Below, piece by piece: positions 5,312 to 54,253 of a stretch of DNA of 54,253 nt. Origin of the DNA: Dehalococcoidia bacterium (GTDB lineage Bacteria; Chloroflexota; Dehalococcoidia; Dehalococcoidales; W498); NCBI GenBank assembly GCA_011191875.1, contig DUFC01000003.1:1-54253 (forward strand), read 5' to 3'. Below the pieces are notes generated by a model that had not been told where the DNA came from, made no database searches, and was given only the letters and a program-made list of their open reading frames with translations. Numbering within the stretch: position 1 is the stretch's first letter; each line of letters starts with the position of its first letter. The position numbers and the translations under genes are program-made.

Positions 5312-6373
5312 CTACGCTTCAAGTGTCTCTGCTATTTCCCGGGTTGCTTCTTCTATATCCTCAGCCTGGACTACAGCACTAATCACAGCTACAGAGTCAG
5401 CTCCGACAGCCATAACCTCAGCTGCATTGTCCTTAGTAATGCCACCAATAGCAATCAGGGGTAAGGTTACTGCCTGTCTGATTTGACGCAGCCCGTCTAA
5501 GCCGACTACCTCCGCCATTTCTTTAGATGCAGTTGGATATATTGAGCCGACAGCAATATAATCAGCCCCCTCAGATTCAGCAGTAATTGCTTGGTTTACA
5601 GTAGTTGTTGAGCAGCCCAGGATTTTATTTATTGGCATCAGCTTACGAGCTACTCCTACAGGCAGGTCATTCTGTCCTAAGTGCAGTCCATCAGCATCAG
5701 TGGCTAGAGCTAAGTCAAGGTAGTCATTTACTATAAAAAGTACACCGTGCTCAGCACATAGATTTCTTAGCTGTTGAGCTATAGGCAGCAGCTCCTTTTT
5801 GCTTCGGAGTTTATCACGCAACTGAATTGTTCTAGCTCCTCCCCGAATTACCTGACTGGCTACATCAATGTGGCTACGCCCCTTTACTAGAGCTTGGGTG
5901 TCTATAATGATATAAAGTCCAGGTAAGCACTTTATCTTGTCCTGACGCAATAATTTGGAAAGTAGGGCTTGCTCTATTGTGTAGATATTAAACCTGGCTT
6001 GCTTGAACTTCTCTGAGTCTAATTTAACCTCTGGAATTTTAGCCATCTCCTCCAAGACTCTCAGCGATTCCTGAACCCTTCTGGAATTAGCCATCACCAT
6101 TATAGGTAGCTCCCTCTGCTTCTCCTCACCAGGTGCTTCAATACTGATACCAACATCACCTCCTGCGTTTCGGGCATTTAAAAGTTGCTGCTGGAATGAC
6201 GGGTCAACTTTCAGCATCTCATGTCGCATAATTCTAAATTGCTGAGTTAGAGTAGCATCGTTAAGCAGTAAGCGGGCTAGGTCTTCAAGAAAACGAAGCC
6301 CCTCACCGAAACGATTCAAATTGGCATCAATAATGCGTAGTGCTTCTCTTGGTATTGATTCTGGTGAAGACAT
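5312..6373 (-). CDS. thiE: Thiamine-phosphate synthase with N-terminal ThiD2-type domain
   Basis: N-terminal RIIDANLNR..EGLR.LED...RVQESLRVLEE (long cyanobacterial-type ThiE); C-terminal IQLRDK, FIVND, DGLHLGQND, YPTASK and AIGGI. Confidence 0.93.
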   Translation of the reverse strand: MSSPESIPREALRIIDANLNRFGEGLRFLEDLARLLLNDATLTQQFRIMRHEMLKVDPSFQQQLLNARNAGGDVGISIEAPGEEKQRELPIMVMANSRRVQESLRVLEEMAKIPEVKLDSEKFKQARFNIYTIEQALLSKLLRQDKIKCLPGLYIIIDTQALVKGRSHIDVASQVIRGGARTIQLRDKLRSKKELLPIAQQLRNLCAEHGVLFIVNDYLDLALATDADGLHLGQNDLPVGVARKLMPINKILGCSTTTVNQAITAESEGADYIAVGSIYPTASKEMAEVVGLDGLRQIRQAVTLPLIAIGGITKDNAAEVMAVGADSVAVISAVVQAEDIEEATREIAETLEA

Positions 6374-24533: not shown

Positions 24534-25640
24534 GTGAAAACGAAACTACCCTTTATTTTGCTAGCAGTTATTGTAATGACGTTACCAATATTCAATGCCT
24601 GTACTACTCCCCCAGCGTCGACCGAAGTTATCGAACTTACCTATAGTAACTTCTTCCCACCGACGCATTTACATTCCGTATTGGCTGAGGAGTGGATAAA
24701 GGAAATCGAATTGCGCACCGATGGGGCGATAAAAATTACTTATTACCCCGGAGGTTCTCTCGTTACTGCACCCCAGACCTATGATGGGGTTGTTCAGGGA
24801 ATTGCCGATATCGGCATGTCATTATTTGCCTATACTCCAGGTCGTTTTCCGGCTTGTGAAATAGTTGACCTGCCCCATGCCTATCCCAATGGCTGGGTAG
24901 CAACTAAGGTAGCCAACGACTTTTATAATAATTTCAAACCAGTCGAACTTGATGATACTCATCCCCTTTATTTCCATGCCCATGGTCCCGGTGTTGTTTT
25001 TACCACCGATAAACCAGTACGAGAAATGGAGGACCTTAATGGGCTGGTGATAAGATCAACCGGGGTTGGTGCTACGATAATGAATGCCCTTGGTGCCGAA
25101 GGCTATGGTGCTTCGCAGGGGGAAGCTTATGAAATGATGCAAAAAGATGTGGTGCAGGGTAGTTTTACTCCACGTGAGGTACTCAAAGGCTGGAATCAGG
25201 CAGAAGTGGTGAAATATGTTACTGGCTGCTACGATGTAGGTAATACCACGATGATGTTTGTCATTATGAACGAGGACAAATGGAACGCTTTACCGGCAAA
25301 CATCCAAGAGGTTTTCACTGAGGTCAGCCAGGAGTGGATAGAAAAGCACGGCAAGGTCTGGGATTACTACGATAAGGTTGGTATTGATTATTTCCTCAGC
25401 CTGGGCGAGGGTAGAGAAGTGATTGAGCTTTCAGCAGTGGAAATGAGTAGATGGGTAGAGACGGCTGTAGAGCCACTAATCAATCAATACATAGAGGAAA
25501 AAACAAGCGCCGGCCTTCAAGCAGATGAATTCCAGGCATACCTGACTGAGAGGGTGGCTTACTGGTCGGATATAGCTCCAACTGCTGAGCAAAGCCAGGC
25601 ATACGTGGAGAGTGAATTAATAGATATCGTTCCAGAATAA
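24534..25640 (+). CDS. dctP: TRAP transporter substrate-binding lipoprotein
   Basis: Lipobox IFNAC; motifs RTDGAIKITYYPGG.L, YDGVVQGIADIG, YTPGRFP, DLNGLVIR and MNEDKWNALP. Confidence 0.93.
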   Translation: MKTKLPFILLAVIVMTLPIFNACTTPPASTEVIELTYSNFFPPTHLHSVLAEEWIKEIELRTDGAIKITYYPGGSLVTAPQTYDGVVQGIADIGMSLFAYTPGRFPACEIVDLPHAYPNGWVATKVANDFYNNFKPVELDDTHPLYFHAHGPGVVFTTDKPVREMEDLNGLVIRSTGVGATIMNALGAEGYGASQGEAYEMMQKDVVQGSFTPREVLKGWNQAEVVKYVTGCYDVGNTTMMFVIMNEDKWNALPANIQEVFTEVSQEWIEKHGKVWDYYDKVGIDYFLSLGEGREVIELSAVEMSRWVETAVEPLINQYIEEKTSAGLQADEFQAYLTERVAYWSDIAPTAEQSQAYVESELIDIVPE

Positions 25641-25665
25641 TATATGGAAGTCAGCTTGTTATTCG

Positions 25666-25708
25666 TGGGGTGCCTGTGGGTAAGCTATTTATGTTTCACG
25701 GCACCCCA
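25666..25708 (+). terminator. Intercistronic hairpin after dctP
   Basis: Perfect 9-bp stem TGGGGTGCC...GGCACCCCA between the binding-protein and permease genes. Confidence 0.6.
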
Positions 25709-25775
25709 AGTTACTATACTGGTTTATCGTTCCAACTGAATAATACCGTAGTCATGCTTAGAATTTGGCAGGCTC

Positions 25776-26327
25776 ATGAGTCAGATTACTTCAGACATAG
25801 ACGTTTCAGAGGAGCAAGTAAGCTATCCCTCAGTAATAATTGTTCGTTTGGGGAAGTTAGCCACCTCTATTAGTAGATGGGTTAGCTGGATAGCGGGAGC
25901 TGGCGTGGTGGCTATGCTGGCTCTCACTATTGCCGATATAATTGGAATCAAGCTCTTTAAATCACCGGTTCCTGGAGCTATTGAAATCGTCGGTTTTTTA
26001 GGTATAGTCGTAACCGCTTTTGCTATTGCTTACACTTATATTCTACGCGGGCATATTCGGGTTGAGTTCTTCGTAACACAGTTGCCTCTCCGCTGGCGGG
26101 CAGGCATCAATGCTCTTGTCTCACTTGTTGGAATCGTTTTATTTGTTTTACTGGCCTGGCAAAGCTACTTATACGGGCATATTCTCCAGACCACTGGTGA
26201 GGTCTCAATGACCCAGAGAATACCCTTTTATCCTTTTGTCTATGCCATAGCCTTCAGCTGTATCCCCATCTGTTTAGTGCTGTTGCTCGAGTTTATCCAA
26301 TCGGCACTGAGAGTAGTGCAAAAGTGA
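25776..26327 (+). CDS. dctQ: TRAP small permease
   Basis: Four TM segments; motifs PVPGAIEIV and RGHIRVEF. Confidence 0.9.
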   Translation: MSQITSDIDVSEEQVSYPSVIIVRLGKLATSISRWVSWIAGAGVVAMLALTIADIIGIKLFKSPVPGAIEIVGFLGIVVTAFAIAYTYILRGHIRVEFFVTQLPLRWRAGINALVSLVGIVLFVLLAWQSYLYGHILQTTGEVSMTQRIPFYPFVYAIAFSCIPICLVLLLEFIQSALRVVQK

Positions 26328-27628
26328 GCCCGGTTGCTGTCGGTATCATCGGTATAATCATTCTGCTTTTTACTTTCCTGCTCAGTATGCCCGTTGGATT
26401 TGCCATGACCTTTGTCGGGCTCATCGGTTTCTGCTATCTGGTTTCGCCTGAAGCGGGTCTTAGCCTCCTGGCACGGGATGTTTTCACCATATTTTCCTCT
26501 TATTCCCTCACCGTTATTCCCATGTTTATACTAATGGGTTCTCTTGCCTTTGCTTCAGGGATGAGTCGGCGGGTCTATGATACCAGTTACAATATTTTCG
26601 GTCAGTTGCGGGGTGGTCTGGTTATGTCTACCATTGCCGGCTGTGCCGGATTTGCGGCTATCTGTGGTTCGACCAGCGCCACCGCCGCTGCCATGGGGAG
26701 GGTGGCTCTTCCAGAGATGAAGCGCTATCACTACGACGATTCACTGGCTACTGGTAGTGTGGCAGCTGCCGGGAGTCTAGGAATACTGATTCCACCCAGT
26801 ACAATTTTTATTGTTTACGGGATATTAACCCAGCAGTCTATCGGTAAACTCTTCTTATCCGGGGTTCTGCCCGGCTTGCTCCTTGCCAGCCTTTTCATAC
26901 TGGTGGTCGTCTTTCTCTGCTGGCGCCGCCCCAGTCTGGCTCCACGTGGAGAGGCAACAAGCTGGAAGAACAAGATGAAGGGACTTGCTGGTATACTTGA
27001 GATGGTAGTCTTATTCACCCTGGTGATGGGTGGACTGTTTCTCGGTTGGTTCAGTCCGATGCAGGCTGGAGCGGTGGGTGCTGCTGGTGCTCTGCTCATC
27101 GGCGTGGTGCGGCGACAGCTTAACTGGTCGGGATTTACCTTCGCCGTTACCGATACCGTCAAGGTAACCTGCCAGGTAATAATCATTGTTACCGGGGCAG
27201 TGATTTTTGGTCATTTTATTGCAGTAACCGAGATTCCACTGATACTGGCTGATTGGGTATCCGGACTTCCTTTGCCGTCTATGGCTATCATGGGCTTGAT
27301 AGTCCTTATGTACCTTATAGGTGGCTTTTTCATGGATGCCCTGGCGATGATTACCCTAACCATTCCCATTATTTATCCCGTGGTTCTCACTTTAGGGTTT
27401 GACCCAATATGGTTTGGAGTTATAGTAGTATTGGTGACTGAGATGGGGGTAATCACGCCCCCGGTGGGGATAAATGTCTATGTCATCAAAGGAATTGCCG
27501 AAGATGTGCCTCTGGAAACTATTTTTAAAGGAATATTTCCCTTTCTTGGCGCTCTGATTGTTGCCGTAGTGATACTGATATTCTTTCCCCAGATTGCGAC
27601 TTTTTTACCCGATATCGCTGGACCTTAA
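26324..27628 (+). CDS. dctM: TRAP large permease
   Basis: Motifs IPMFILMG, FAAICGSTSATAA, GSLGILIPPS, FDPIWFGV and ITPPVGINVYV. Confidence 0.95.
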   Translation: MSPVAVGIIGIIILLFTFLLSMPVGFAMTFVGLIGFCYLVSPEAGLSLLARDVFTIFSSYSLTVIPMFILMGSLAFASGMSRRVYDTSYNIFGQLRGGLVMSTIAGCAGFAAICGSTSATAAAMGRVALPEMKRYHYDDSLATGSVAAAGSLGILIPPSTIFIVYGILTQQSIGKLFLSGVLPGLLLASLFILVVVFLCWRRPSLAPRGEATSWKNKMKGLAGILEMVVLFTLVMGGLFLGWFSPMQAGAVGAAGALLIGVVRRQLNWSGFTFAVTDTVKVTCQVIIIVTGAVIFGHFIAVTEIPLILADWVSGLPLPSMAIMGLIVLMYLIGGFFMDALAMITLTIPIIYPVVLTLGFDPIWFGVIVVLVTEMGVITPPVGINVYVIKGIAEDVPLETIFKGIFPFLGALIVAVVILIFFPQIATFLPDIAGP

Positions 27629-34077: not shown

Positions 34078-34231
34078 GCTAATTGGTGTTCCATTTGCTG
34101 ATACTTGAGCGCATTGTTTTTGGCTACACTATAACTGAAAGGGGACACCTCAACTACGATTTAAAAGGACTACTGCCTCTTTGTCCATTATCTTGGACAA
34201 TAATTGCACGAATCTTTTGGAGGATTATCTG

Positions 34232-34765
34232 ATGTCAAAAAAGCTAATGGTAATTCCGGAGCAGTGTTCTGGTTGCAGGATATGTGAACTTGTGTGTGCA
34301 ATCAAACATTTCGGAGTGAATAATCCGAAGAAGTCGGCGATAAAAGTATTAACCATATACCCTCATCCGGTGGTGAGAATGCCGATTGTGTGCAGTCAAT
34401 GTAAGGTGCCCACATGTGCGCAAGTATGTCCCGTTGACGCCTTACAACGGAGCGACGGCGTCTTGCAACTGGACAAGGAGAACTGCATTTCGTGTTATAA
34501 ATGTGTGGATGCTTGCCCTTTCGGAGCGATATACGTACATGAAGATTATGACCTGCCTATCATATGTGATATGTGTGGAGGAGACCCGGAGTGCGTTAAA
34601 AAATGTCCTACGGGAGCACTCAGGCTTATACCGGAGTCTACCCTAGGTGAATTCAAACGTCTTAACAATGTTTTAAGTTATACTCAGATGAAAGAAATTG
34701 AGTTCTATGAGAAGGGTGAAAGGAAGGTCATCCACTACGCGGAAGTGGGGAAGGAAGAGCTATGA
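34232..34765 (+). CDS. 4Fe-4S multicluster electron-transfer subunit (AOR partner)
   Basis: Four Cys clusters: CSGCRICELVC, CSQCKVPTCAQVCP, CISCYKCVDACP and CDMCGGDPECVKKCP. GGAGG RBS precedes ATG 34232. Confidence 0.93.
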   Translation: MSKKLMVIPEQCSGCRICELVCAIKHFGVNNPKKSAIKVLTIYPHPVVRMPIVCSQCKVPTCAQVCPVDALQRSDGVLQLDKENCISCYKCVDACPFGAIYVHEDYDLPIICDMCGGDPECVKKCPTGALRLIPESTLGEFKRLNNVLSYTQMKEIEFYEKGERKVIHYAEVGKEEL

Positions 34766-36591
34766 GTATAAAGAGCGGATATTTTAACAAACACCTGCAT
34801 GTGGACCTTACCAAGGGCACTGCCGAGCACCAGGACATATCGGATGCCTTCCTCGAAAAGTATATAGGGGGGCGCGGCTTTGGTGCCAAACTGGTCTGGG
34901 ACAATCTGAAGAAGCATGATTTCAGGGTAGACCCCCTCGGTCCGGAGAATCTCCTGGTTATCGCCCCGGGACCTCTAACCGGGGTTTACCTACCCTCGTC
35001 GGGAAAGACCTCCTTTGCTGCCATTTCACCAGCAACTGGACTCTATGGTGATTCCTCTATGGGCGGTGGCTTCGGTGTCGAACTGCGGCAGACGGGAGTA
35101 GATGTTCTGTCTATTACCGGCAGGGCGCCAGAATTATCAGTACTATTCATCGACAACGGTGAAACTACTGTACTTCCCACGCCTGAACTGAAGGAGAAAA
35201 GCTGTCTGGAAGCTGAAGGAATTATCAAAGAACGACTGGGCACCTATGCTATCCATGTTGCTACCATTGGTGTGGCTGGAGAGAACATGGTGAACTTTGC
35301 CTGTGTCAACGCTGACTGGAGCCGCAATGCGGGGAGAACGGGAATTGGCACAATCATGGGAGCGAAGAACCTCAAGGCGATTGTGGTACGGGGACACAAA
35401 GACCTCCCAGCCCATGATGTTAGCGGGCTAATGGAGGAAGCTGACAAAGCTTACAAATACTTAAAGGAACATAAATATTTCAGTATGTGGCAACAGGAAG
35501 GCTTGATGAATATCATAGAGTACGCCAACGAGAAGGGGATACTGCCGGTATGCAATTTCAAGGATACCGTTTTTGCCAAGCATAACCAGATTAACGGGGC
35601 GACAATGCTGGCTCACTATAAGATAGGTGATAGTGCATGTTTTTCATGTTCCATGTGTTGCGGTAATATTTGTCTAGTGAAGAATGGTAAATATACAGGG
35701 ACGATAATTGAGGGTCCAGAATATGAATCATGCGCCATGCTAGGACCCAACTTAGGAATTGACAATTTCGCAGCTATACTTTCCGCAATCCGACTTTGTG
35801 ATGAACTGGGGGTAGATACAATTTCTACAGGTAACATTGTGGGAGCCGTGATAGAAGGGTACGAGAGGGGAATATTATCGCTCTCCGACCTCGATGGCAG
35901 TGAGATCACCTGGGGAGATGAAGATGCGATATTAGAACTGATACAAAAAATAGCTGACCGGCAGGGCATCGGTAACATTCTTGCCGATGGGTCTCGCCGT
36001 ATTATCGAGAAGTGGCCTGAAATGGATAAAATCATCCTTCAAGTCAAGGGTCTTGAGCAGTCGGCTTACGATAGCCGCGCTGGCATTACCATGGGACTGG
36101 GATATGCTACCTCAGACATAGGGGCACATCACACACGGGCATGGACAGTTGCCAAGGAAATAGAAGAGGGTCAGAACTGGTCTGATGATGAGAAGGTTGG
36201 CATCGTAATTTATCACCAGAAAGTGCGCCCATTATTTGACATGCTCGGTGTTTGCCGCTTGCCTTGGATAGAACTGGGGTTGAACGAACGGCACTATGAG
36301 AATTTCTACAAATGCGTGACGGGAAAGGAAGCATCCCTCGAGCAGCTTCTGGAGCTCTCTAATGACATCTATAACCTAACACGCTTGATAAATACCCGCC
36401 TTGGCACGACTCGCAAAGACGATAGCCTTCCCTACAAGGTTTGGGCTAATCCTCCTCTCACGGGTCCGAATGTGGGCAAGGTGATTGACCAGGAAGACTT
36501 CCAGAAGCTTCTTTCTTTGTATTATCAAAAGCGTGGCTGGGACGAAGACGGCATTCCCCCCACTGGACTAGAAAGCAAGTTTGAAGATTAA
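34762..36591 (+). CDS. aor: Aldehyde:ferredoxin oxidoreductase family (tungstopterin) enzyme
   Basis: Motifs YIGGRGFG, ISPATG, GRTGIGTIMGAKNLKAIVV, CFSCSMCC, EGPEYES, DELGVDTIS, VKGLE and YYQKRGWDEDGIP. Confidence 0.94.
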   Translation: MSIKSGYFNKHLHVDLTKGTAEHQDISDAFLEKYIGGRGFGAKLVWDNLKKHDFRVDPLGPENLLVIAPGPLTGVYLPSSGKTSFAAISPATGLYGDSSMGGGFGVELRQTGVDVLSITGRAPELSVLFIDNGETTVLPTPELKEKSCLEAEGIIKERLGTYAIHVATIGVAGENMVNFACVNADWSRNAGRTGIGTIMGAKNLKAIVVRGHKDLPAHDVSGLMEEADKAYKYLKEHKYFSMWQQEGLMNIIEYANEKGILPVCNFKDTVFAKHNQINGATMLAHYKIGDSACFSCSMCCGNICLVKNGKYTGTIIEGPEYESCAMLGPNLGIDNFAAILSAIRLCDELGVDTISTGNIVGAVIEGYERGILSLSDLDGSEITWGDEDAILELIQKIADRQGIGNILADGSRRIIEKWPEMDKIILQVKGLEQSAYDSRAGITMGLGYATSDIGAHHTRAWTVAKEIEEGQNWSDDEKVGIVIYHQKVRPLFDMLGVCRLPWIELGLNERHYENFYKCVTGKEASLEQLLELSNDIYNLTRLINTRLGTTRKDDSLPYKVWANPPLTGPNVGKVIDQEDFQKLLSLYYQKRGWDEDGIPPTGLESKFED

Positions 36592-46232: not shown

Positions 46233-47051
46233 CTAGTATCTCTTCCGGGAAACCTCTTTACCTTGATTATCGCAAAGCACAGCTACATCAGGTTCAGTGT
46301 TATTCCAAATAGCTTGGCTATATTCAAAACTAAATCCTCCCCATTCGGTATGATATTCGTTAGTATAAACTCGGATGCTTTTGCCCGGAGCCAAAATATA
46401 AGATGGGAAAATAAACGATGGATACCCATCTGATATATCCATTAGCACGCAACCAGCTAAATCTTGAGGTTATCCTCCGAGATTGGTGATTTCTACATAT
46501 TCATCAGACTCTACATTAGGCACCAGACCATTATAATAAATGTAAGTAATTTGTACATTTTCAACTATTATAGGTGGTAATATGATAGGTGGAGCCCAAA
46601 TTCCCCGACCAGCCTGTCTAGCTTCCGCCTCTAGCTCCTCCAAGTAACCCTGGTATTTAGTGTCAGGAGGATAAGATATGGCCCAGGCAAGCCCCTGTCT
46701 TACCAGCTCAGCATTAACGAAGGTATCATCAACATAAACATAGTGTAGAAGCCGTCCATATTGGTCAGTTTCGGTGATGTCTTTCTCTAATCGGACGGTT
46801 TCCCCTTCCACTAGCTGTCTGTTATATCTAGTTGCCTCCTGAGCTAGGGCACAAAATTCAGGTCGTTTATCGTCTAGCTCAGGCGTATCTATGCCAATAT
46901 AGCGAACCTTATATGTTGTGCCAGCAATGTTAACTTCTATGGTGTCACCGTCAATCACCCTGGTAACTAGAGGAGTAGTGGGAGCCGTACAACCAGTGGC
47001 TAAAATTAGAAGAAGCAAGCCCAAGATACTGGTGATATATTTCGTTTTCAT
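46233..47051 (-). pseudogene. Thermonuclease (SNase) lipoprotein with lamin-tail domain, interrupted by an in-frame TAA
   Basis: Lipobox LATGC; SNase motifs RVIDGDT, RYIGIDTPE and DQYGRLL. The LTD begins DEYVEITNLGG, hits TAA at 46472-46470, and continues in frame PQDLAG..LAPGKSIRVYT..AIWNN. Confidence 0.85.
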
Positions 47052-47118
47052 ATTCAGCCAGCACTATACTTTTATATAATTGTCATCATTATATCATAAG
47101 CTGTCTCCATATATTTAT

Positions 47119-47147
47119 TTGCATTTCAGGTTATTTTATGTTAATAT
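47119..47147 (+). promoter_or_regulatory. sigma70-type promoter for the thi leader
   Basis: TTGCAT-17 bp-TAATAT with an extended TG, just upstream of the riboswitch. Confidence 0.55.
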
Positions 47148-47170
47148 TTCAAGGTAAAGTTTGATATTTT

Positions 47171-47256
47171 AACCGCTAGGGGTGCATAAGCTGAGAGGCG
47201 GTTTGATGCCAACCCTTGGAACCTGATCTCGATAGTGCGAGCGTAGGGAAGCGGCT
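47171..47256 (+). promoter_or_regulatory. TPP riboswitch aptamer
   Basis: CCGCT-AGGGGTGC..GCTGAGA..ACCCTTGGAACCTGATC...GCGTAGGGA-AGCGG matches the THI-box consensus; lies upstream of thiC. Confidence 0.96.
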
Positions 47257-47263
47257 GTCTTAG

Positions 47264-47310
47264 ACCAAGGGTCTATTATTACCAGCCGAAGCCCTTGGTT
47301 TTATTTATTT
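47264..47310 (+). terminator. Riboswitch expression-platform terminator
   Basis: Stem ACCAAGGG...CCCTTGGT followed by a T-tract. CAGCCG in the loop can pair with CGGCTG at the aptamer 3' end, giving an antiterminator. Confidence 0.8.
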
Positions 47311-47320
47311 AGAGGCGAAC

Positions 47321-48622
47321 ATGACTCAACTGGAATTAGCTAGAGACGGTACTATTTCACCCCAAATGGAACTGGTAGCACAGTATGAAGGGGTGGAGGC
47401 TGAGTTTATTCGGCAGGGTGTAGCCTTAGGGACAATTGTAATTCCGGCTAATACTAGGCATACAAATCTTGCTCCCTGTGGCATAGGACAAGGACTTAAA
47501 ACCAAGGTCAATGCCAATATCGGGACTTCTTCCGACTTTGGCAATATTGATACCGAGTTGGAAAAGGTGCGAGTAGCTATTGACTCCGGAGCAGATACAA
47601 TTATGGATCTAAGCACTGGCGGTGACATATCGTCTATTCGGCGGAACATTATCACATCTAGCTCGTTACCAGTAGGAACAGTACCCATCTACCAGGCGGG
47701 GATTAAGGCAATAGCTAAACACGGCGCCATAGTTAAGATGACCGTCGATGAACTGTTTACCGTGATTGAAGAGCATGCCCGGGATGGTGTTGATTTCATA
47801 ACGGTGCATTGTGGCGTAACCCAGTCAGCCATTTCCCGGCTTAAACAGCAGGGGAGGGTAGCTGATGTTGTATCTCGAGGCGGTGCTTTCCTGATAGGCT
47901 GGATGCTCTACAATGAGCGCGAGAATCCTCTTTATGAATACTTTGACCGCTTACTGGAGATAGCTAAACAGTTTGACATAACATTGAGTCTCGGTGATGG
48001 TATGCGTCCCGGTAGCATAGCTGATGCTACCGACCGTCCCCAAATAGAGGAGTTGCTTACTTTAGGGGAGTTAGTAAACCAGGCTCAGCAAGCCGGAGTT
48101 CAGGTAATGGTTGAGGGTCCGGGGCACCTACCACTGAATCAAATTGAGACCAATGTTCGTTTACAGAAGGCTATTTGTAAGGGGGCTCCTTTCTATGTGC
48201 TGGGTCCGCTAGTAACTGATGTTGCCGCTGGTTATGACCATATCACTGGAGCTATAGGTGGTGCTATTGCTGCTGCTGCCGGCACTGATTTTTTATGCTA
48301 CGTAACGCCAGCCGAACATCTTTCCCTGCCTGACCCTGAGGATGTGAGTCAAGGAGTAATTGCCTCACGCATTGCCGCTCATGCCGCTGATATAGTTAAG
48401 GAAGTAAAAGGTGCCCAGGAGTGGGATAGAAAGATGTCTATGGCTCGAAAGAAGCTTGACTGGGAAGAACAAGCCAGGTTGTCCTTAGACCCTAAGCGGT
48501 CTCGCCAAGTTCATAGTAAGCACGATTCCGCCGGATCGGCTTGCAGTATGTGTGGGGAGTTCTGCGCTATGGCACTAATGGAAAAGTATCTAGGCATCTC
48601 AGCCCCAAGGTCTGGCTTTTAG
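47321..48622 (+). CDS. thiC: Phosphomethylpyrimidine synthase
   Basis: Motifs [53 protein letters not shown] and CSMCGEFC; downstream of a TPP riboswitch. Confidence 0.95.
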
Positions 48623-48645
48623 CATAATAAAGAAGAGAGGTTAAA

Positions 48646-49458
48646 ATGACATTATTTCACCAGGTCAGGGAAGGAGAAGTTACTAAGGCTATCGTGGGTA
48701 GCTTTTTACGCCAGTTTGAGGAATATGTTTACAGTGATGTCATTATTGTTGGTGGCGGACCCAGCGGACTTATAGCCGGGAGAGAACTGGGTAAGGCTGG
48801 ATACAAAGTCCTGATTATAGAGAGGAATAACTATCTGGGTGGTGGCTTCTGGGTGGGTGGTTATTTTATGAATAAGGTTACTCTAAGAGCCCCATCCCAG
48901 GAGATTCTTGATGAGGTGAATGTTCCCTACTCTGAGGCTAGCGAAGGTCTTTATGTAGCTGATGCCCCTCATGCCTGTTCTAAGCTCATTGGTGCTACCT
49001 GTGATGCCGGGGTTAAGATTTTCAACTTAACTCTTATGGAAGACTTGATAGTGCGTGAAGATAATATGGTAGCCGGGTTAGTGGTTAATTGGAGTCCTAT
49101 TGCCTATCTGCCTAAGGAGGTCTCAGCCCTTGACCCGATACCCCTGGAAACAAGGGTGGTAATTGATGCCACCGGTCATGATGCCTGTGTGGCTAGAAAA
49201 CTGGAGCATCGTAGTGCGCTCAAGCTGACCGGAGAAGGAGCCATGTGGATTGAGAAATCGGAGGAGGCTGTGGTGGAGCACACTGGTGAGGTCTATCCCG
49301 GGTTAATTGTAACTGGTATGGCAGTAGCCACTGTTTACGGGTTACCACGCATGGGACCTACCTTTGGCGCTATGCTTCTCTCAGGGAAGCGAGCGGCTGA
49401 AGTTGCTATAGGGATTCTGCAACAAATTGAGGAAAGCTCAGTAACTGAAAATGGGTAG
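48646..49458 (+). CDS. thi4: Thi4-family thiazole synthase (non-Cys type)
   Basis: Motifs DVIIVGGGPSGL, LGGGFW.GG, IDATGHDA and GLPRMGPTFGAMLLSGKRAA. Confidence 0.94.
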   Translation: MTLFHQVREGEVTKAIVGSFLRQFEEYVYSDVIIVGGGPSGLIAGRELGKAGYKVLIIERNNYLGGGFWVGGYFMNKVTLRAPSQEILDEVNVPYSEASEGLYVADAPHACSKLIGATCDAGVKIFNLTLMEDLIVREDNMVAGLVVNWSPIAYLPKEVSALDPIPLETRVVIDATGHDACVARKLEHRSALKLTGEGAMWIEKSEEAVVEHTGEVYPGLIVTGMAVATVYGLPRMGPTFGAMLLSGKRAAEVAIGILQQIEESSVTENG

Positions 49459-50563
49459 CGCACTTAATATAGGCAAGCTGTTTGGTATACAACTCAGGCT
49501 GCACTACAGCTGGTTTATTATATTTGTTTTCTTTACTATCTTATTAGTTTCACCTCACTGGTTATCACCGTCTTGGTGGATTATAGGTATAATTACCTGC
49601 CTGCTATTTTTTGCCTCAGTAGTTGCTCACGAGCTTGCTCACAGCCTTGTGGGTAGAGCCAATGGTATCCCGATAAAAAGCATAACCCTTTTTATCTTTG
49701 GTGGCGTCGCCCAGATGACTAAGGAGGCAACGCGCCCAGGGGCTGAGTTCAAGATGGCAGCCGCTGGTCCCGCCTGTAGCCTGGCAATTGGTGGCTTGTT
49801 TTTTGGCCTGTTCTGGCTCTTTCCCCCAGACATAGCCGAGCCTATAGCTACTATGGTTTATTGGCTAGCCTATATAAATGTGGCACTGGCAATTTTCAAT
49901 CTAATTCCGGGCTTCCCTTTAGATGGTGGGCGTGTTTTACGTTCCTTTCTTTGGCAAGTTACCGGTGACTATCAGCGCTCCACCCGAATTGCCACCCAAG
50001 TGGGGCGGGGCGTAGGCTATCTCTTCATACTAGGTGGCATTTTAATAGCCTTCCTGCGTCCATTTGGTCTGGATTGGTTTAGCGGTTTGTGGCTAGTCTT
50101 TATCGGCTGGTTCCTGGAAAACGCTGCCTCAGCTAGCTATCGTCAAGCTAAATGGCGGGAAGCATTATTTAAGTTTACTGCTTCACAGGTGATGACTTCT
50201 AACTGCCCGGTAGTTCCTTCAAGTGCTACAGTTAATCAGTTGGTTCAAGGATACATCTTTACCGGTGGGCATCACCTCTTTCTGGTAGCTGACGAAGGCA
50301 AGCTAGAGGGCATTTTAACCTTACAGAATATTACATCTGTTTCTAATCAAAATCGGGATGTAACTCAAGTAAAAGAGATAATGACCCCAATTAATAAGCT
50401 AAAGGCAGTTCGTCCTGACCAGGATGCTCTAAGTATACTGGAGCAGATGGATGAGAATGATATGAACCAGATGCCGGTAGTGAGTGAGGGTAGGGTTATC
50501 GGGTTGATTGCCCGTGATAACCTGCTAAGGTTCCTCCGCATCCGTTCTGTATTGGGGATATAA
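49451..50563 (+). CDS. Site-2 (M50) protease with two CBS domains
   Basis: Motifs HELAH, LFIFGGVA, AAGP and FNLIPGFPLDGGRVL; C-terminal CBS pair. Confidence 0.94.
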   Translation: MGSALNIGKLFGIQLRLHYSWFIIFVFFTILLVSPHWLSPSWWIIGIITCLLFFASVVAHELAHSLVGRANGIPIKSITLFIFGGVAQMTKEATRPGAEFKMAAAGPACSLAIGGLFFGLFWLFPPDIAEPIATMVYWLAYINVALAIFNLIPGFPLDGGRVLRSFLWQVTGDYQRSTRIATQVGRGVGYLFILGGILIAFLRPFGLDWFSGLWLVFIGWFLENAASASYRQAKWREALFKFTASQVMTSNCPVVPSSATVNQLVQGYIFTGGHHLFLVADEGKLEGILTLQNITSVSNQNRDVTQVKEIMTPINKLKAVRPDQDALSILEQMDENDMNQMPVVSEGRVIGLIARDNLLRFLRIRSVLGI

Positions 50564-50587
50564 TTATTTATCAACAGGGGCTGCAAT

Positions 50588-51772
50588 TTGTATGATGTAT
50601 TAGTTGTAGGTGGTGGACCGATAGGGAGCCACGTGGCCTATAAGCTCGCTGGGATGGGCTATGGTGTAGTTGTGCTGGAGCGAAAGGAAAAGCTGGGAGA
50701 ACAGGTTTGCTGTACCGGCATTATAAGCCAGGAGTGCGTTGATTCTTTTGCTATTGATAACAATGTTATTTTGAGGCAGGTAAATAGTGCCAGATTATTT
50801 CCACCTTCAGGGAGATTGCTTAGGCTGTGGCGGCAAGAAACCCAGGCTTGTATCGTAGACCGAGCTGCTTTTGATGTAGCTGTAGCTAATAGGGCTCAAG
50901 ATAAAGGGGCAGAATATATACTAAACAGCCTCGTCAGGGATATAGAGAGGAAGGATGACACAGTTAATGTTGAGGCAATTCGTCTTGGAGAAACGTTAAA
51001 CTTTGAAGCCAGAGCAGTAGTCGTTGCCACTGGCTTTGGCTCAAAACTTACTAAACGGCTGGGGTTAGGTAAGTCTAGAGATTTTGTCATGGGAGCTCAA
51101 GCTGAGGTAGTAACGAACGGGGTAGATGAGGTAGAGGTCTTTTTCGGTCAGGAGACAGCTCCTGGTTTTTTTGCCTGGCTGGTGCCAACCTCACCGCAGA
51201 GAGCCCTGGTAGGGTTGCTGTCGCGCCGCAGTCCAGAGCTTTACTTAAAAAAGTTTATGTCAGCCTTGCTGGCTGAAAAAAAGATAGCCTCAACTGAGGC
51301 TGAGCTAAGCTATGGTGGAATTCCGCTGAAGCCACTGGCCAAAACTTACAGCCAGAGGTTAATAGTAGTAGGAGACGCCGCTGGTCAAGTGAAGCCAACC
51401 ACCGGCGGTGGCATCTATTATGGTTTATTGTGTGCTGACATAGCTGCTAATACTCTGAACCGAGCGTTACAAAACGATGACCTATCAGCTAAAGGTCTGG
51501 CTAGCTATGAGCGACAGTGGAGGAGAAAGCTCCGGCAAGAGCTGAAAACAGGCTATTACGCCCGAAAATTTTACGAGCGCCTGAGTGACAAGCACATTAA
51601 TAGGATATTTGACATAATAATATCTAATGGCATTCATGATACTCTACTTAAAGCCGAGGAGCTATCCTTTGACTGGCAGGGTAAGGCTGTGTTGAGGTTG
51701 ATGGGGCACAGGGCAATTTCTAAAGCTCTTGAGATGATGAAGATACCGTTTCATTTAGGAGAGGGCAGATGA
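50588..51772 (+). CDS. Geranylgeranyl reductase family FAD oxidoreductase
   Basis: Motifs YDVLVVGGGPIG, VCCTG, VDRAAFD, PGFFAWLVP and VGDAAGQVKPTTGGGIYY. Confidence 0.9.
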   Translation: MYDVLVVGGGPIGSHVAYKLAGMGYGVVVLERKEKLGEQVCCTGIISQECVDSFAIDNNVILRQVNSARLFPPSGRLLRLWRQETQACIVDRAAFDVAVANRAQDKGAEYILNSLVRDIERKDDTVNVEAIRLGETLNFEARAVVVATGFGSKLTKRLGLGKSRDFVMGAQAEVVTNGVDEVEVFFGQETAPGFFAWLVPTSPQRALVGLLSRRSPELYLKKFMSALLAEKKIASTEAELSYGGIPLKPLAKTYSQRLIVVGDAAGQVKPTTGGGIYYGLLCADIAANTLNRALQNDDLSAKGLASYERQWRRKLRQELKTGYYARKFYERLSDKHINRIFDIIISNGIHDTLLKAEELSFDWQGKAVLRLMGHRAISKALEMMKIPFHLGEGR

Positions 51773-52575
51773 ATAGCAGCAGCCAGAGTCCAAGATTGGG
51801 TGAGGCAGCCAACAGTTTTCTAGCTAGTTTGTCACTGGAAGAATGGAAAACAAGCCAGCAAGAAGTATATAAGTTCGTTCGCTGGTATGGCTGGGAGCAA
51901 CCGTTTTCTGGGCTTTCTGCCCCCGAAGTAGCTAACTATGCTGAGCGGTTATCATTATCTGATACCGATTATATAAAAAGGCTTGAACTTATAAAAGCCT
52001 TTCTGGTTTATGCTAGGAAGGAAGGGTGGAGTAAGAGCAATCTAGCCACTCACCTTAAGATTAAGAAGAGGAAAACCCCGCTTCAGTCTTCAATCAGGCA
52101 GGATTTGCCTGAGATTATTTCTTTAACTCGGCAAGGGTATACTGAACTGGATGCTGAGCTGGCAGCCCTCAAGAGTCGGCGTCTTCAGGCTATTGATGAA
52201 GTGCGTAGAGCAAGGGCAGACAAGGACTTCCGCGAGAATGCACCTCTGGAGACAGCTAGAGAACAGTACGCTCAGTTGGAAGGACGGATTAGACAGCTAG
52301 AAGAAACTCTAAAGTCAGCGATTATTATTGATGAGAAACAAGAGGTAACATTCAAGGCAAGTATTGGTGATAATGTTATCCTGAGCGATTTGATTTCTGG
52401 CGAAGAACTACACTATACATTAGTCAGTACCAGAGAGGCAGACCCAACCAGAGGGAAGATTTCCAAGGCTTCACCTATAGGTAAAGCGCTGTTGGGTCGA
52501 GTTCAGGGAGAGGTAATAGAAGTAACGGCACCAGCCGGCAAGTTACGCTATCAAATTAAGCAGATTAAACGTTAA
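51769..52575 (+). CDS. greA: Transcription elongation factor GreA with ~110-aa N-terminal extra domain
   Basis: C-terminal region LTRQGY..L..EL, KDFRENA, EADPTRGKISKASPIGKALLG and APAG; total length 268 aa versus ~160 aa typical. Confidence 0.92.
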   Translation: MNSSSQSPRLGEAANSFLASLSLEEWKTSQQEVYKFVRWYGWEQPFSGLSAPEVANYAERLSLSDTDYIKRLELIKAFLVYARKEGWSKSNLATHLKIKKRKTPLQSSIRQDLPEIISLTRQGYTELDAELAALKSRRLQAIDEVRRARADKDFRENAPLETAREQYAQLEGRIRQLEETLKSAIIIDEKQEVTFKASIGDNVILSDLISGEELHYTLVSTREADPTRGKISKASPIGKALLGRVQGEVIEVTAPAGKLRYQIKQIKR

Positions 52576-52595
52576 CAAGGCAAACGGTTGGACTA

Positions 52596-53687
52596 ATGAG
52601 TGTTAACATTGGCATCATAGGGCTAGCCAAAAGCGGCAAGACAACCATTTTCGATGCTTTGACCAGGGGTAAAGCACATACAGAAAGTCCCGCGGCGCAT
52701 ATCGGGATAGCTAAGGTGCCAGATGCCCGCCTTAAAGTATTAGACGGTATGCTTCAGCCGAAGAGGGTAGTCCCAGCCGAGGCAAGTTACATTGATATAG
52801 ATGCTTCAATCAAGGGTTTGGATAAGGAGAAAGTTATCAGTGGTGAACTCCTAACTCAACTTAGCAATGTAGATGCTCTAATTAATGTTGCCCGATCCTT
52901 TACCGATGAAAGTATACCCCATATTGAAGGTAGCCTGGATGTAGAGCGGGATATTGCCACTATAGATTTAGAACTTGCCTTTTCCGACCTGGCCATTATT
53001 GAGAGAAGACTGGAGAGGATAGAAGTATCATTAAAAGGGGCTAAGCAACCTGAGCGCCAGGGTTTTCTCCACGAGCAAGAGAGGCTGATGAAGATTAAAA
53101 ATAATTTGGAAAAAGATATTCCCGTCCGAGAATTAAGGCTGACTACTGACGAAGCTAAAACTATTGCCAATTACCAGTTTCTCACTGCCAAGCCAGTACT
53201 AGTAGTGGTCAATATTGGAGAAGAGCAGTTACCTCAGGCAGCATCTCTAGAAACAGAACTGAATCTACATTATTCACGACCAAAGTGTCGCCTTATTACC
53301 CTCTGTGGAAAATTAGAAATGGAGCTGGCTCAATTAGATAATGAGGCTGCTGAGACATTCCGTGCTGAGTTTGGTATAGCTGAATCCGGGCTTGACCGTA
53401 CTATAAAACTATCCTACGAACTATTAGGACTAATCTCATTTTTCACTATAGTTTCGGGAGAGGTTAAAGCTTGGTCTATTCAAAATGGCACTAGCGCTTT
53501 AAAAGCCGCTGGTAAAATCCACTCTGATATGGAAAGGGGCTTCATTCGAGCAGAGGTAATTAGTTACGATGACCTGATGAAGTGTGGTAATCTATCTGAA
53601 GCACGCAAGAAAGGACTTTTACGACTGGAGGGCAAGGATTACATAGTCCAGGATGGCGATTTAATCACCTTCCTGTTCAATGTCTAG
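52596..53687 (+). CDS. ychF: YchF/Ola1 family ATPase
   Basis: Motifs VPDARL, FLTAKP, LISFFT, EVKAW, AAGKIHSDMERGFIRAEV and RLEGKDYIVQDGD (TGS domain). Confidence 0.93.
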   Translation: MSVNIGIIGLAKSGKTTIFDALTRGKAHTESPAAHIGIAKVPDARLKVLDGMLQPKRVVPAEASYIDIDASIKGLDKEKVISGELLTQLSNVDALINVARSFTDESIPHIEGSLDVERDIATIDLELAFSDLAIIERRLERIEVSLKGAKQPERQGFLHEQERLMKIKNNLEKDIPVRELRLTTDEAKTIANYQFLTAKPVLVVVNIGEEQLPQAASLETELNLHYSRPKCRLITLCGKLEMELAQLDNEAAETFRAEFGIAESGLDRTIKLSYELLGLISFFTIVSGEVKAWSIQNGTSALKAAGKIHSDMERGFIRAEVISYDDLMKCGNLSEARKKGLLRLEGKDYIVQDGDLITFLFNV

Positions 53688-53716
53688 AAAGCCTCTCAGT
53701 GTCCTATAATCCTGTC

Positions 53717-53745
53717 TTGACAGGAAATTAGCCTCAGGGCATAAT
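53717..53745 (+). promoter_or_regulatory. tRNA promoter
   Basis: TTGACA-17 bp-CATAAT, ending 10 bp before the tRNA. Confidence 0.75.
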
Positions 53746-53755
53746 AAATTTAACA

Positions 53756-53831
<76 letters not shown>

Positions 53832-54253
53832 TGAAGCTAAGAGGGGTACCTGCTTCCATAAAATGAGCATCGAAAACCTGCTTGCGAGATACGAGCTAGC
53901 CGCCAGGGCCGAAGGAAAGAGCCCCAAGACAGTGGACCATGTCAAACTCCCGGTAAAACTCTTCGCCGGTTCCATCGGTGGTATCCAGGATGTAAGCAAG
54001 GTTAGGGCCGATGACTTACGGCACTTCATCCTGGATCTGGGGCAGAGGCCAAAGTGGGCGGGTACATCACACGAGAAAGAAGAGAAAATAAGCCGCACCA
54101 CGCTCAATACATACGTAAGAGGCATCAAGGCATTCTGGGCCTGGTTAAGCCGGGAAGGGATAATCAAGCACAATCCGTTCGCCGGCGTTCGTACCCCCAG
54201 GTTACCCAAGCGGCGGCTGCCCAAGGTAATGAGCGAGGAGGAGATGGTGGCCG
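53832..54253 (+). mobile_element. Left end of a tRNA-Gly-integrated genomic island or prophage
   Basis: An integrase starts 31 bp after the tRNA CCA; the sequence is visibly more GC-rich at third codon positions than the upstream core genes. Confidence 0.8.
53863..54253 (+). CDS. Tyrosine recombinase/integrase, N-terminal part (runs off window)
   Basis: Absent from the ORF track. Manual translation MSIENLLARYELAARAEGKSPKTV...SRTTLNTYVRGIKAFWAWLSREGIIKHNPFAGVRTPRLPKRRLPKVMSEEEM gives a core-binding domain plus an LP..ms.eE linker. Confidence 0.9.
   Translation, partial: MSIENLLARYELAARAEGKSPKTVDHVKLPVKLFAGSIGGIQDVSKVRADDLRHFILDLGQRPKWAGTSHEKEEKISRTTLNTYVRGIKAFWAWLSREGIIKHNPFAGVRTPRLPKRRLPKVMSEEEMVA

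Follow-up and report, generated by a model that had tools for sequence, protein, structure and literature searches.

To our knowledge, Gre factors are thought to reach RNA polymerase (RNAP) through its secondary channel only, where they compete with other factors. The canonical secondary-channel factors (GreA and GreB/Gfh1) have 156-158 aa among our PDB matches. Longer proteins are covered by the NCBIfam models NF004969 ('transcript cleavage factor/unknown domain fusion protein', 718 positions) and NF011309 (906 positions), which describe a C-terminal Gre module with an added N-terminal region and whose carriers we take to be chlamydiae and spirochaetes. [quoted passage not shown]

Tyrosine recombinases are defined by a catalytic domain with an RKHRH pentad and a tyrosine nucleophile, as described in PMC8138268. 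Their core-binding (CB) domains contact the DNA major groove and also mediate protein contacts according to another paper (PMC13667924), in which CB-like units that lack the catalytic domain are assigned to a DNA-binding region of the effectors HsvG/HsvB. Outside recombinases, the CB fold is reused in rhizobial Nop proteins and HsvG/HsvB, which are type III effectors, and is there linked to DNA binding. These secreted effectors have tandem CB-like arrays, which were recognized by structure modelling.

The window, by which we mean the whole stretch of 54,253 nucleotides that was analysed, comes from a Dehalococcoidia bacterium and encodes a GreA fusion protein in which 116 extra residues precede a complete GreA module at residues 117-267 (Table 1). 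The initial annotation had placed a GreA at 51769..52575 and had noted about 110 extra N-terminal residues; an ORF of 268 aa was confirmed at this position, and by Pfam and NCBIfam the residues preceding the Gre module number 116. Both Gre domains and the acidic pair of canonical GreA (E. coli 1grj) are also found in the fusion protein, which 1grj matches with an E-value of 3e-18 by single sequence and of 1.1e-40 by family profile. What the fusion protein has in addition is a conserved domain and a basic linker. NF004969 and NF011309 have the same layout, but the window protein matches only their Gre ends (positions 564-712 and 756-902, respectively), and their N-terminal regions, to which it shows no match, exceed its own in length by a factor of 5-7.

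The conserved N-terminal domain is likely homologous to the CB domain of Xer-type tyrosine recombinases. It can be aligned co-linearly over the full length with Xer-type CB domains (XerD 1a0p, XerA 5hxy and the isolated 3nrw), with which it has the core positions of a common hydrophobic core and a C-terminal helix pair of the form '(F)(L/F)..(L/A).(K/R)E......N' that ends basic. An insert of ~15 residues in the Xer-like integrases is missing from the GreA-fused domain. In addition, where the compared integrases have near-invariant polar residues (S20, T23, R53, R54, T83, Y84 and R86), the fused domain is variable or acidic; integrase R86, for example, aligns with E73 of the GreA fusion. Compared to the Nop proteins and HsvG/HsvB, to which we liken it by description only, the fusion protein carries a single CB-type copy on a housekeeping transcription factor.

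Table 1. Features of the GreA fusion locus, with positions in the window.
Feature	Position	Strand	Basis
GreA fusion ORF, 268 aa + stop (P0001)	51769..52575	+	ATG to TAA, read from sequence
Shine-Dalgarno-like GGAGAGGG, just 5' of the GreA fusion ATG	51758..51765	+	Consensus resemblance only
Conserved domain, residues 10-100, likely homologous to the tyrosine-recombinase N-terminal SAM-like/core-binding (CB) domain	51796..52068	+	hhalign, 3nrw_A, dN/dS
Last helix pair, residues 75-100 (IKAFLVYARKEGWSKSNLATHLKIKK), best-matching part, spotted by the initial annotation	51991..52068	+	BLASTP, half-profile HH
Variable, basic, low-complexity linker, residues 101-116	52069..52116	+	Position equals that of the recombinase CB-catalytic linker
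Gre N-terminal coiled-coil domain, residues 117-190	52117..52338	+	PF03449; alignment to 1grj from chain residue 3
Acidic pair at coiled-coil tip, codons D153-F154-R155-E156	52225..52236	+	Alignment to 1grj positions 41, 44
Gre C-terminal globular domain, residues 196-267	52354..52569	+	PF01272

The Gre module and a possible role of the added domain

The Pfam scan found both Gre domains well above their cut-offs, PF03449 (GreA_GreB_N) at residues 118-186 with 55.6 bits (cut-off 24.5; E 6.4e-15) and PF01272 (GreA_GreB C-terminal) at residues 196-267 with 74.7 bits (cut-off 26.9; E 5.8e-21). PF03449 is present in 81/81 family members and PF01272 in 79/81. The GreA models of NCBIfam match residues 117-267 of the fusion protein, although their equivalog cut-offs are narrowly missed (NF001263, 140.1 bits against 145; TIGR01462, 130.9 against 139), and relatives are named 'GreA/GreB family elongation factor' or 'GreA' in the databases. 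The motif KDFRENA forms residues 152-158. In the HMMER alignment to 1grj (E. coli GreA), its D153 and E156 fall on chain residues 41 and 44; both are invariant in 81/81 diverse family members, which bears out the earlier claim that the Gre acidic tip keeps D and E. Judging from these features, the Gre module of the fusion protein is very likely functional as a transcript-cleavage factor.

We propose that the fusion protein is the GreA transcript-cleavage factor of this lineage and consists of three parts: a helical domain at residues ~10-100 that would descend from the CB domain of an Xer-type tyrosine recombinase, the Gre module, and a basic, flexible linker, some 20 residues long, that joins the two. 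For the Gre part, the most likely mode of action is that of other bacteria, with the coiled coil reaching through the RNAP secondary channel and cleavage of backtracked RNA being stimulated. In a Gre factor the chain starts outside this channel, at the base of the coiled coil, which would place the added domain, on its tether, at the channel mouth. The recombinase catalytic domain is absent from the fusion protein (PF00589 was not found and the HH probability to an integrase catalytic profile was 0.2%) and therefore no recombination is expected; a function as tyrosine recombinase is ruled out.

The N-terminal domain has a median pI of 9.57 (85 members), and the stretch from L96 to L119, which spans the linker, has 19-33 residues (median 22) in 81 members, with a mean of 6.6 K+R and 1.5 D+E. 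The basic domain and linker hint at nucleic-acid binding. Our preferred inference is that, from its place at the channel mouth, the basic domain together with the linker would contact nucleic acid close to the elongation complex, for the most part non-specifically. Duplex DNA is the first candidate, and these contacts would raise the local concentration or the residence time of GreA on transcribing or stalled polymerase. This role as nucleic-acid or DNA tether is suggested tentatively, with rather less than even confidence. The complete reading, i.e. a CB-derived domain, a linker and a functional Gre module including the tether role, likewise falls somewhat short of an even chance.

Any DNA binding by the fused domain is probably not of the recombinase-like, site-reading kind, because the conserved polar residues of the integrases are not kept. 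Of the interpretation in the initial annotation, the homology, the lineage-wide spread and the acidic pair stand; the tethering of cleavage to DNA or to specific sites is a tentative proposal. That in Dehalococcoidia the captured recombinase domain would make GreA, the universal factor for proofreading and against arrest, DNA-tethered and possibly site-preferring, with cleavage recruited via DNA contacts and not by diffusion to the secondary channel alone, seems unlikely. We know of no bacterium for which recruitment of Gre activity by DNA contacts has been described.

Alternatively, the CB-derived bundle may not bind DNA and may serve in protein-protein docking, where it could anchor GreA to a lineage-specific RNAP surface or to another factor, or self-associate. 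Such a role would fit the lack of the conserved polar positions of integrases, and it would fit the positions that are conserved instead, which are core aromatics and hydrophobics: W39 is invariant in 81 members, and F36, Y57, F78, L79 and L92, as well as G41, are conserved in at least 90% of them. These most conserved residues of the N-terminal domain form an aromatic/hydrophobic core that is compatible with any helical bundle. The contribution of CB domains to protein-protein interactions described in PMC13667924 points in the same direction. Docking is more difficult to reconcile with the basic character of domain and linker. Moreover, no conserved neighbour gene encoding a candidate partner of the N-terminal domain was found among 11 related loci, in which the FAD oxidoreductase recurs upstream of the GreA fusion in six and YchF downstream in one. 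We consider docking rather unlikely.

Another possible add-on function is RNA binding, in which domain and linker would grip the extruded 3' RNA in deeply backtracked complexes and enable longer, GreB-like cleavage. The basic patch of GreA/GreB contacts backtracked RNA. Here, both domain and linker are basic, and a location at the channel mouth would follow from the Gre module starting at 1grj chain residue 3. A functional GreA/GreB 'basic patch' is also named in the reference list of PMC4598747. However, CB domains are known for binding of duplex DNA and not of RNA, as far as PMC13667924 describes them, and a signal for an RNA-binding family was absent from all family scans. An RNA grip is quite unlikely, and a tether with mostly non-specific contacts, in the first place to duplex DNA, is the role that we prefer.

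Relationship of the N-terminal domain to recombinase core-binding domains

Using deep profiles, hhalign aligned the GreA N-terminal domain to the integrase CB domain with a probability of 94.9% (E 4.6e-8) over 99 columns, in which the whole domain is co-linear. Two integrase subgroup profiles used separately gave 95.3% and 92.7%, and a second hhalign implementation gave 86.1% and 85.2% for the GreA N-terminal domain against the integrase domain. The two halves of the domain also align independently and co-linearly, with HH probabilities of 57.3% and 91.2%. The higher value was obtained with the half-profile of residues 59-103 alone, which matched the corresponding end of the integrase domain, and profile-to-sequence matches of about 20 bits fall within residues 75-100. 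As controls, reversed profiles gave 0.2-0.3% compared to the real 94.9%, a value that was reached by 0/40 column shuffles and 0/40 eight-column block shuffles. Block shuffles of 15 columns reached 93.9%, but they preserve the local match and hence are no clean null.

Searches against the PDB gave a similar picture. The only significant non-Gre match was 3nrw_A ('Phage integrase/site-specific recombinase', 117 aa), with an E-value of 0.0017 for profile positions 4-99 against chain residues 3-107 and, in a second search, of 0.00099 for profile positions 9-97 against chain residues 8-105; the next unrelated match had an E-value of at least 0.2. This E-value of ~0.001 and the HH probabilities of 85-95% with deep profiles support the proposal in the initial annotation that GreA carries a recombinase-like domain.

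Family libraries gave weaker matches. In the 81 members, Pfam matches to SAM-like families, judged sub-threshold from their E-values, were seen for SAM_1 (9/81), SAM_4 (7/81) and SAM_5 (3/81), with best E-values of 0.0013 (Phage_int_SAM_1), 0.0017 and 0.074, respectively. Further sub-threshold matches were to XerD and XerC (each in 4/12 members) and to a PHROG integrase (1/12). Across four libraries the weak matches are to recombinases, and among the other families, coiled coils aside, none recurs as often. Phage_int_SAM clusters are the language-model neighbours of the N-terminal domain (0.87-0.88), which we regard as a lead only. A tblastn search with the domain against phage genomes gave two weak matches only (E 0.5).

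The resemblance could also be due to convergence, or to a profile artefact between helical domains, with the N-terminal domain being unrelated to CB domains. This would fit the sequence-to-profile matches, all of which are weak (about 20-22 bits), and the Pfam results, since no family reaches its gathering score; for residues 1-116 of the window protein no family was at or near the gathering score and there was no SAM-like match. It would also fit the lower HH probabilities of shallower profiles, which were 76.9%, 24.2% for a diverse profile against nine integrases and 6.4% for a 12-sequence profile. The 12-sequence profile also found no recombinase in the PDB. The homology call therefore depends on profile depth, because shallow profiles give low HH probability. 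Convergence is less compatible with the co-linearity over the full length, which holds for both integrase sub-profiles and for both domain halves, with the low scores of the reversed and shuffled controls and with the preference for recombinases among the weak matches in four libraries. The fusion point argues against it as well, as GreA appears to be joined exactly at the old CB/catalytic domain boundary. We regard convergence as improbable and retain descent from a CB domain as the explanation.

The window contains a tyrosine recombinase of its own. The integrase ORF begins at 53863, behind a tRNA-Gly and at the window edge. It encodes a genuine N-terminus of a tyrosine recombinase, with PF00589 in 9/9 longer homologues; the comparator integrases are Xer-like (XerA, XerD and XerC at E-values of 1e-34 to 1e-35). 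The initial annotation had aligned IKAF segments of the two proteins by eye, and the positions it gave are correct, with residue 75 of the GreA fusion at nt 51991 and residue 88 of the integrase at nt 54124. BLASTP found 8/17 identities for this segment pair, but taken alone the match is borderline, with an E-value of 0.051 for a single comparison. A search of the 222 window ORFs with the HMM of the GreA N-terminal domain did not match the integrase. A functional link between fusion and integrase was rejected, given an integrase match in 0/11 related loci and the window-edge position behind tRNA-Gly. The adjoining integrase is a coincidence of context.

Spread and conservation of the fusion

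Residues 1-116 match 702 proteins at E<=1e-3. Among the 120 matches listed of these 702, 117 have both Gre Pfam domains and three shorter ones have PF03449 only. A profile search with the N-terminal domain gave 371 clusters at 50% identity. Architectures were seen for the best 150 of these 371 representative clusters, in which GreA follows the N-terminal domain in 81 of the 84 matches listed of at least 250 aa; the weaker 221 clusters may include other architectures. In 11/11 genome loci, the N-terminal domain and GreA are encoded in a single frame. The records that bear the fusion carry the names Dehalococcoidales, Dehalococcoidia and Chloroflexota. The earlier suggestion that the fusion is lineage-wide and extends beyond one genome is supported by the 371 clusters, the 11 loci and the listed long matches.

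The dN/dS ratio of the N-terminal domain (residues 10-100) was 0.08-0.20 in 10/10 pairs, and the mean top-residue frequency was 0.50 in the domain, which is about as conserved as the Gre domains, and 0.20 in the linker. The N-terminal extension is a true domain under purifying selection. An annotation artefact, in which the real start would be near residue 117 and the preceding 116 codons untranslated, is hardly credible: a Met is found within reference positions 100-125 in 26/81 members, but an internal Met is absent from the window protein, the low dN/dS extends across residues 10-100, the open frame is kept in the 11 loci and throughout the 371 clusters, and a Shine-Dalgarno-like sequence precedes the ATG at 51769.

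This start codon and the TGA stop of the FAD-oxidoreductase ORF that lies upstream overlap in the sequence ATGA (51769-51772). A scan of positions 47000-54253 for promoters and terminators gave 10 promoter-like sites compared to a shuffle mean of 10.0, and thus no excess. In our literature search we found no paper on GreA fused to a recombinase-type N-terminal domain, and for GreA in Dehalococcoides the search gave an acetylome study, the available part of which contains nothing on domain structure.

Implications for GreA

The fusion would be a clean case of reuse of a CB domain without its catalytic partner, with the joint exactly at the former domain boundary. It also means for annotation that several hundred clusters labelled only 'GreA/GreB family' contain a domain that can be named but is unannotated. 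For the organisms that carry it, a basic domain that is under constraint, probably derived from a recombinase and flexibly tethered suggests an additional mechanism by which GreA is recruited or retained.

Gene context and Gre module

The greA fusion lies in a stretch of housekeeping genes, in the order TPP riboswitch, thiC, thi4, M50-CBS protease, FAD oxidoreductase, greA fusion, ychF, tRNA-Gly and integrase. Its start ATG shares 4 nt (ATGA, from 51769) with the stop of the FAD oxidoreductase ORF and lies shortly downstream of GGAGAGGG. The FAD oxidoreductase adjoins the fusion upstream at 6 of 11 related loci, which came from one scan of species-representative genomes; no functional link between the two is apparent. 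The ychF gene lies 3' of the fusion at one of the 11 loci (L001) and an integrase match at none, and therefore the neighbouring integrase in the window is incidental. It probably marks the edge of an island inserted at tRNA-Gly. Another of the loci, L002 (JAIWFK010000024.1, titled 'Calditrichales bacterium'), carries thiC, thi4, M50-CBS, FAD oxidoreductase and greA fusion ordered as in the window, with proteins 78–91% identical to their counterparts, and is therefore probably a mis-binned Dehalococcoidales contig. Elsewhere in the window, the ferredoxin/aldehyde:ferredoxin oxidoreductase and TRAP/AMP-binding genes are typical of anaerobe metabolism.

Features of the window, with the Gre domains given as residues of the fusion
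Feature	Position	Strand	Remarks
ORF, 212 aa	4671–5309	-	no Pfam family at E≤1e-6
ThiD2-ThiE fusion	5312–6373	-	distant from thiC
ORF, 499 aa	18290–19789	+	no Pfam family at E≤1e-6
ORF, 299 aa	20192–21091	+	no Pfam family at E≤1e-6
TRAP transporter DctP, DctQ, DctM	24534–27628		adjoins AMP-binding enzyme
4Fe-4S ferredoxin-type protein, then aldehyde:ferredoxin oxidoreductase	34181–36591	+	AFOR_N, AFOR_C
ORF, 181 aa	40233–40778	+	no Pfam family at E≤1e-6
TPP riboswitch	47168–47266	+	Rfam RF00059, 71.3 bits; directly 5' of thiC
thiC	47321–48622		then thi4
FAD-dependent oxidoreductase ORF	50588–51772		Lycopene_cycl, DAO, FAD_binding_3 matches
GreA fusion ORF	51769–52575	+	268 aa; ATG to TAA
Gre domain 1	residues 118–186		Pfam, E 6.4e-15
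Gre domain 2	residues 196–267		Pfam, E 5.8e-21
Promoter match for tRNA-Gly	53717–53745		sigma-70-like, 11/12
tRNA-Gly (TCC)	53756–53831
Xer-like tyrosine integrase, 5' part	53863 to window end		starts 32 nt past tRNA-Gly

Residues 117–267 are covered by NCBIfam GreA models (best 140.1 bits, cut-off 145) and align to E. coli GreA (PDB 1grj, E 3e-18) from chain residue 3, with D153 and E156 at chain positions 41 and 44. The Gre module is intact and its catalytic acids are invariant. The positions that the initial annotation gave for both IKAF segments and the KDFRENA tip agreed with the sequence. Residues 1–116 had no meaningful Pfam match (top NDC10_II, E 0.11).

Distribution and constraint of the fusion

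A sequence search with residues 1–116 matched 702 proteins at E≤1e-3. Among the 120 matches listed, 117 were ~264–285 aa long with both Gre Pfam domains and three were shorter fragments that had PF03449 alone; source names were given for a few, all GreA or GreA/GreB family proteins of Dehalococcoidales or Chloroflexota. A profile of 12 close N-domains (A1) matched 371 of 1.84 billion representatives at 50% identity at E≤1e-3, of which 201 also passed E≤1e-10. Among the best 150 of the 371, 84 were at least 250 aa, with a Gre part in 81; the other three read like frameshifted or chimeric predictions, judged from their sequences. The 66 below 250 aa were mostly fragments (Gre match in 18), and no architecture other than the Gre fusion occurred among these 150. 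N-domain and GreA share a single frame at 11/11 loci; locus titles are Dehalococcoidales (eight: five plain, three 'uncultured Dehalococcoidales'), Dehalococcoidia (two), Chloroflexota (one) and Calditrichales (one).

Over residues 10–100, dN/dS was 0.08–0.20 in 10/10 pairs, indicating purifying selection. The mean top-residue frequency among 85 diverse members was 0.50 in the N-domain, 0.59 in the Gre coiled-coil domain, 0.50 in the Gre C-terminal domain and 0.20 in the linker (residues 101–116). Measured from L96 to L119, the linker has 19–33 residues (median 22) and is basic (K+R 6.6 vs D+E 1.5). The N-domain fusion is real, constrained and lineage-wide; its spread through the lineage had been guessed from the single sequence.

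Relationship to recombinase core-binding domains

The ORF at 53863 encodes the N-terminal part of a tyrosine recombinase of Xer-like type: PF00589 was present in 9/9 longer homologues, whose profile matched structures of XerA, XerD and XerC with E-values between 1e-35 and 1e-34. The top PDB match of the integrase profile was 9i5v_14 (E 4.5e-39, over the recombinase catalytic region), whose label 'Ribosome-associated translation inhibitor RaiA' is at odds with its 401-aa recombinase-like sequence; this chain may be mislabelled. BLASTP of the two window segments aligned the IKAF stretch alone (8/17 identities, E 0.051).

Comparison of GreA N-domain (GreA-N) and integrase profiles by hhalign in two set-ups
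GreA-N profile	Integrase profile	Set-up	HH probability	E-value
85 diverse	10 N-domains	1	76.9%	2.1e-5
85 diverse	114 N-domains	1	94.9%	4.6e-8
85 diverse	~309-aa subgroup, 65 rows (source name XerD in some)	1	95.3%	2.1e-8
85 diverse	≥340-aa subgroup, 40 rows	1	92.7%	4.3e-7
A3 (81 full-length)	A5 (114 full-length)	2	86.1%	5e-6
A6 (23 N-domains)	A5	2	85.2%	6.1e-6
A3	A4 (9 full-length)	2	24.2%	8.2e-4
A1	A5	2	6.4%	0.0057

The two lowest values keep the same register, which indicates that HH probability depends on profile depth. The 94.9% alignment spans 99 columns, GreA-N residues 5–103 against the entire integrase N-domain, and each half matches its counterpart independently (residues 1–58, 57.3%; 59–103, 91.2%). 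Controls were low: reversed profiles gave 0.2–0.9%, GreA-N paired with the integrase catalytic domain 0.2% and the integrase N-domain paired with the Gre part 0.1%. Column shuffles reached 50% in 0/60 and 0/40 cases and eight-column block shuffles in 0/60 and 1/40, none attaining the real value; fifteen-column blocks, which are long enough to leave the local match intact and hence score up to 93.9%, are not a clean null.

In the PDB, the single non-Gre chain below E 0.01 was 3nrw_A, an N-terminal domain of 117 aa labelled 'Phage integrase/site-specific recombinase', at E 0.0017 with A3 and 0.00099 with the N-only A6 (9–97 on 8–105); the next match had E 0.2. Sub-threshold matches included Phage_int_SAM_1 (9/81), SAM_4 (7/81) and SAM_5 (3/81) in Pfam, XerD and XerC (4/12 each) in TIGR and a PHROG integrase (1/12), and besides recombinase families no non-coiled-coil family recurred comparably. 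Language-model neighbours were Phage_int_SAM clusters (0.87–0.88), which serves as a lead only. The GreA-N HMM matched 64/114 integrase N-domains at E≤1e-3 (~20 bits, mostly the last helix pair), with E-values from a database of just these 114 sequences; the reverse search matched 8/85. Neither HMM gave a cross-match among 222 window ORFs, the window fusion sequence alone had no SAM-like match, and A1 found nothing in the PDB. This weak signal fits a core-binding (CB) domain, which passages of PMC8138268 describe as poorly conserved in sequence and conserved in structure.

Positions common to integrase and GreA-N (Y10/F-or-Y17, F34/F36, F37/W39, G39/G41, L52/V54, F55/Y57, F91/F78, L95/A82, R97/K84, E98/E85, N104/N91, V109/L96, K113/K100) comprise the hydrophobic core and the end of the last helix. 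In contrast, the near-invariant polar integrase residues S20, T23, R53, R54, T83, Y84 and R86 are not retained in GreA-N, R86 aligning to E73, and an integrase insert of ~15 residues is absent. The fusion point falls at the position of the CB/catalytic domain boundary of recombinases. The homology proposed in the initial annotation is thus well supported at the level of sequence profiles, by the 85–95% from deep profiles, the low controls and 3nrw_A.

Possible role of the N-domain

According to passages of PMC4598747, Gre factors bind RNAP through the C-terminal domain and insert the coiled coil, with two acidic residues at its tip, into the secondary channel. In the fusion, a constrained, basic and apparently CB-derived domain sits on a variable basic tether. 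Gre residue 1 would lie at the coiled-coil base, which would place the added domain outside the mouth of the channel. In that position its most plausible partner would be nucleic acid close to the elongation complex, and such contact would raise recruitment or residence. In excerpts of PMC13667924, CB domains are described as major-groove binders, and type III effectors are said to contain CB-like units that lack a catalytic domain and correspond to a DNA-binding region. The same excerpts mention protein contacts of CB domains, and the N-domain could instead be a protein docking module. Alternatively, it could bind extruded backtracked RNA. A spurious CB resemblance sits poorly with the low controls and the 3nrw_A match. 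Tethering of the factor to DNA, as proposed in the initial annotation, may be one form of the nucleic-acid contact.

Long GreA fusions of other kinds are known as NCBIfam models, and a published description of GreA fused to a CB-type N-domain was not found in the literature searched, including sections of PMC7918482. The protein is a canonical factor whose added domain, present across the lineage, is newly recognised.
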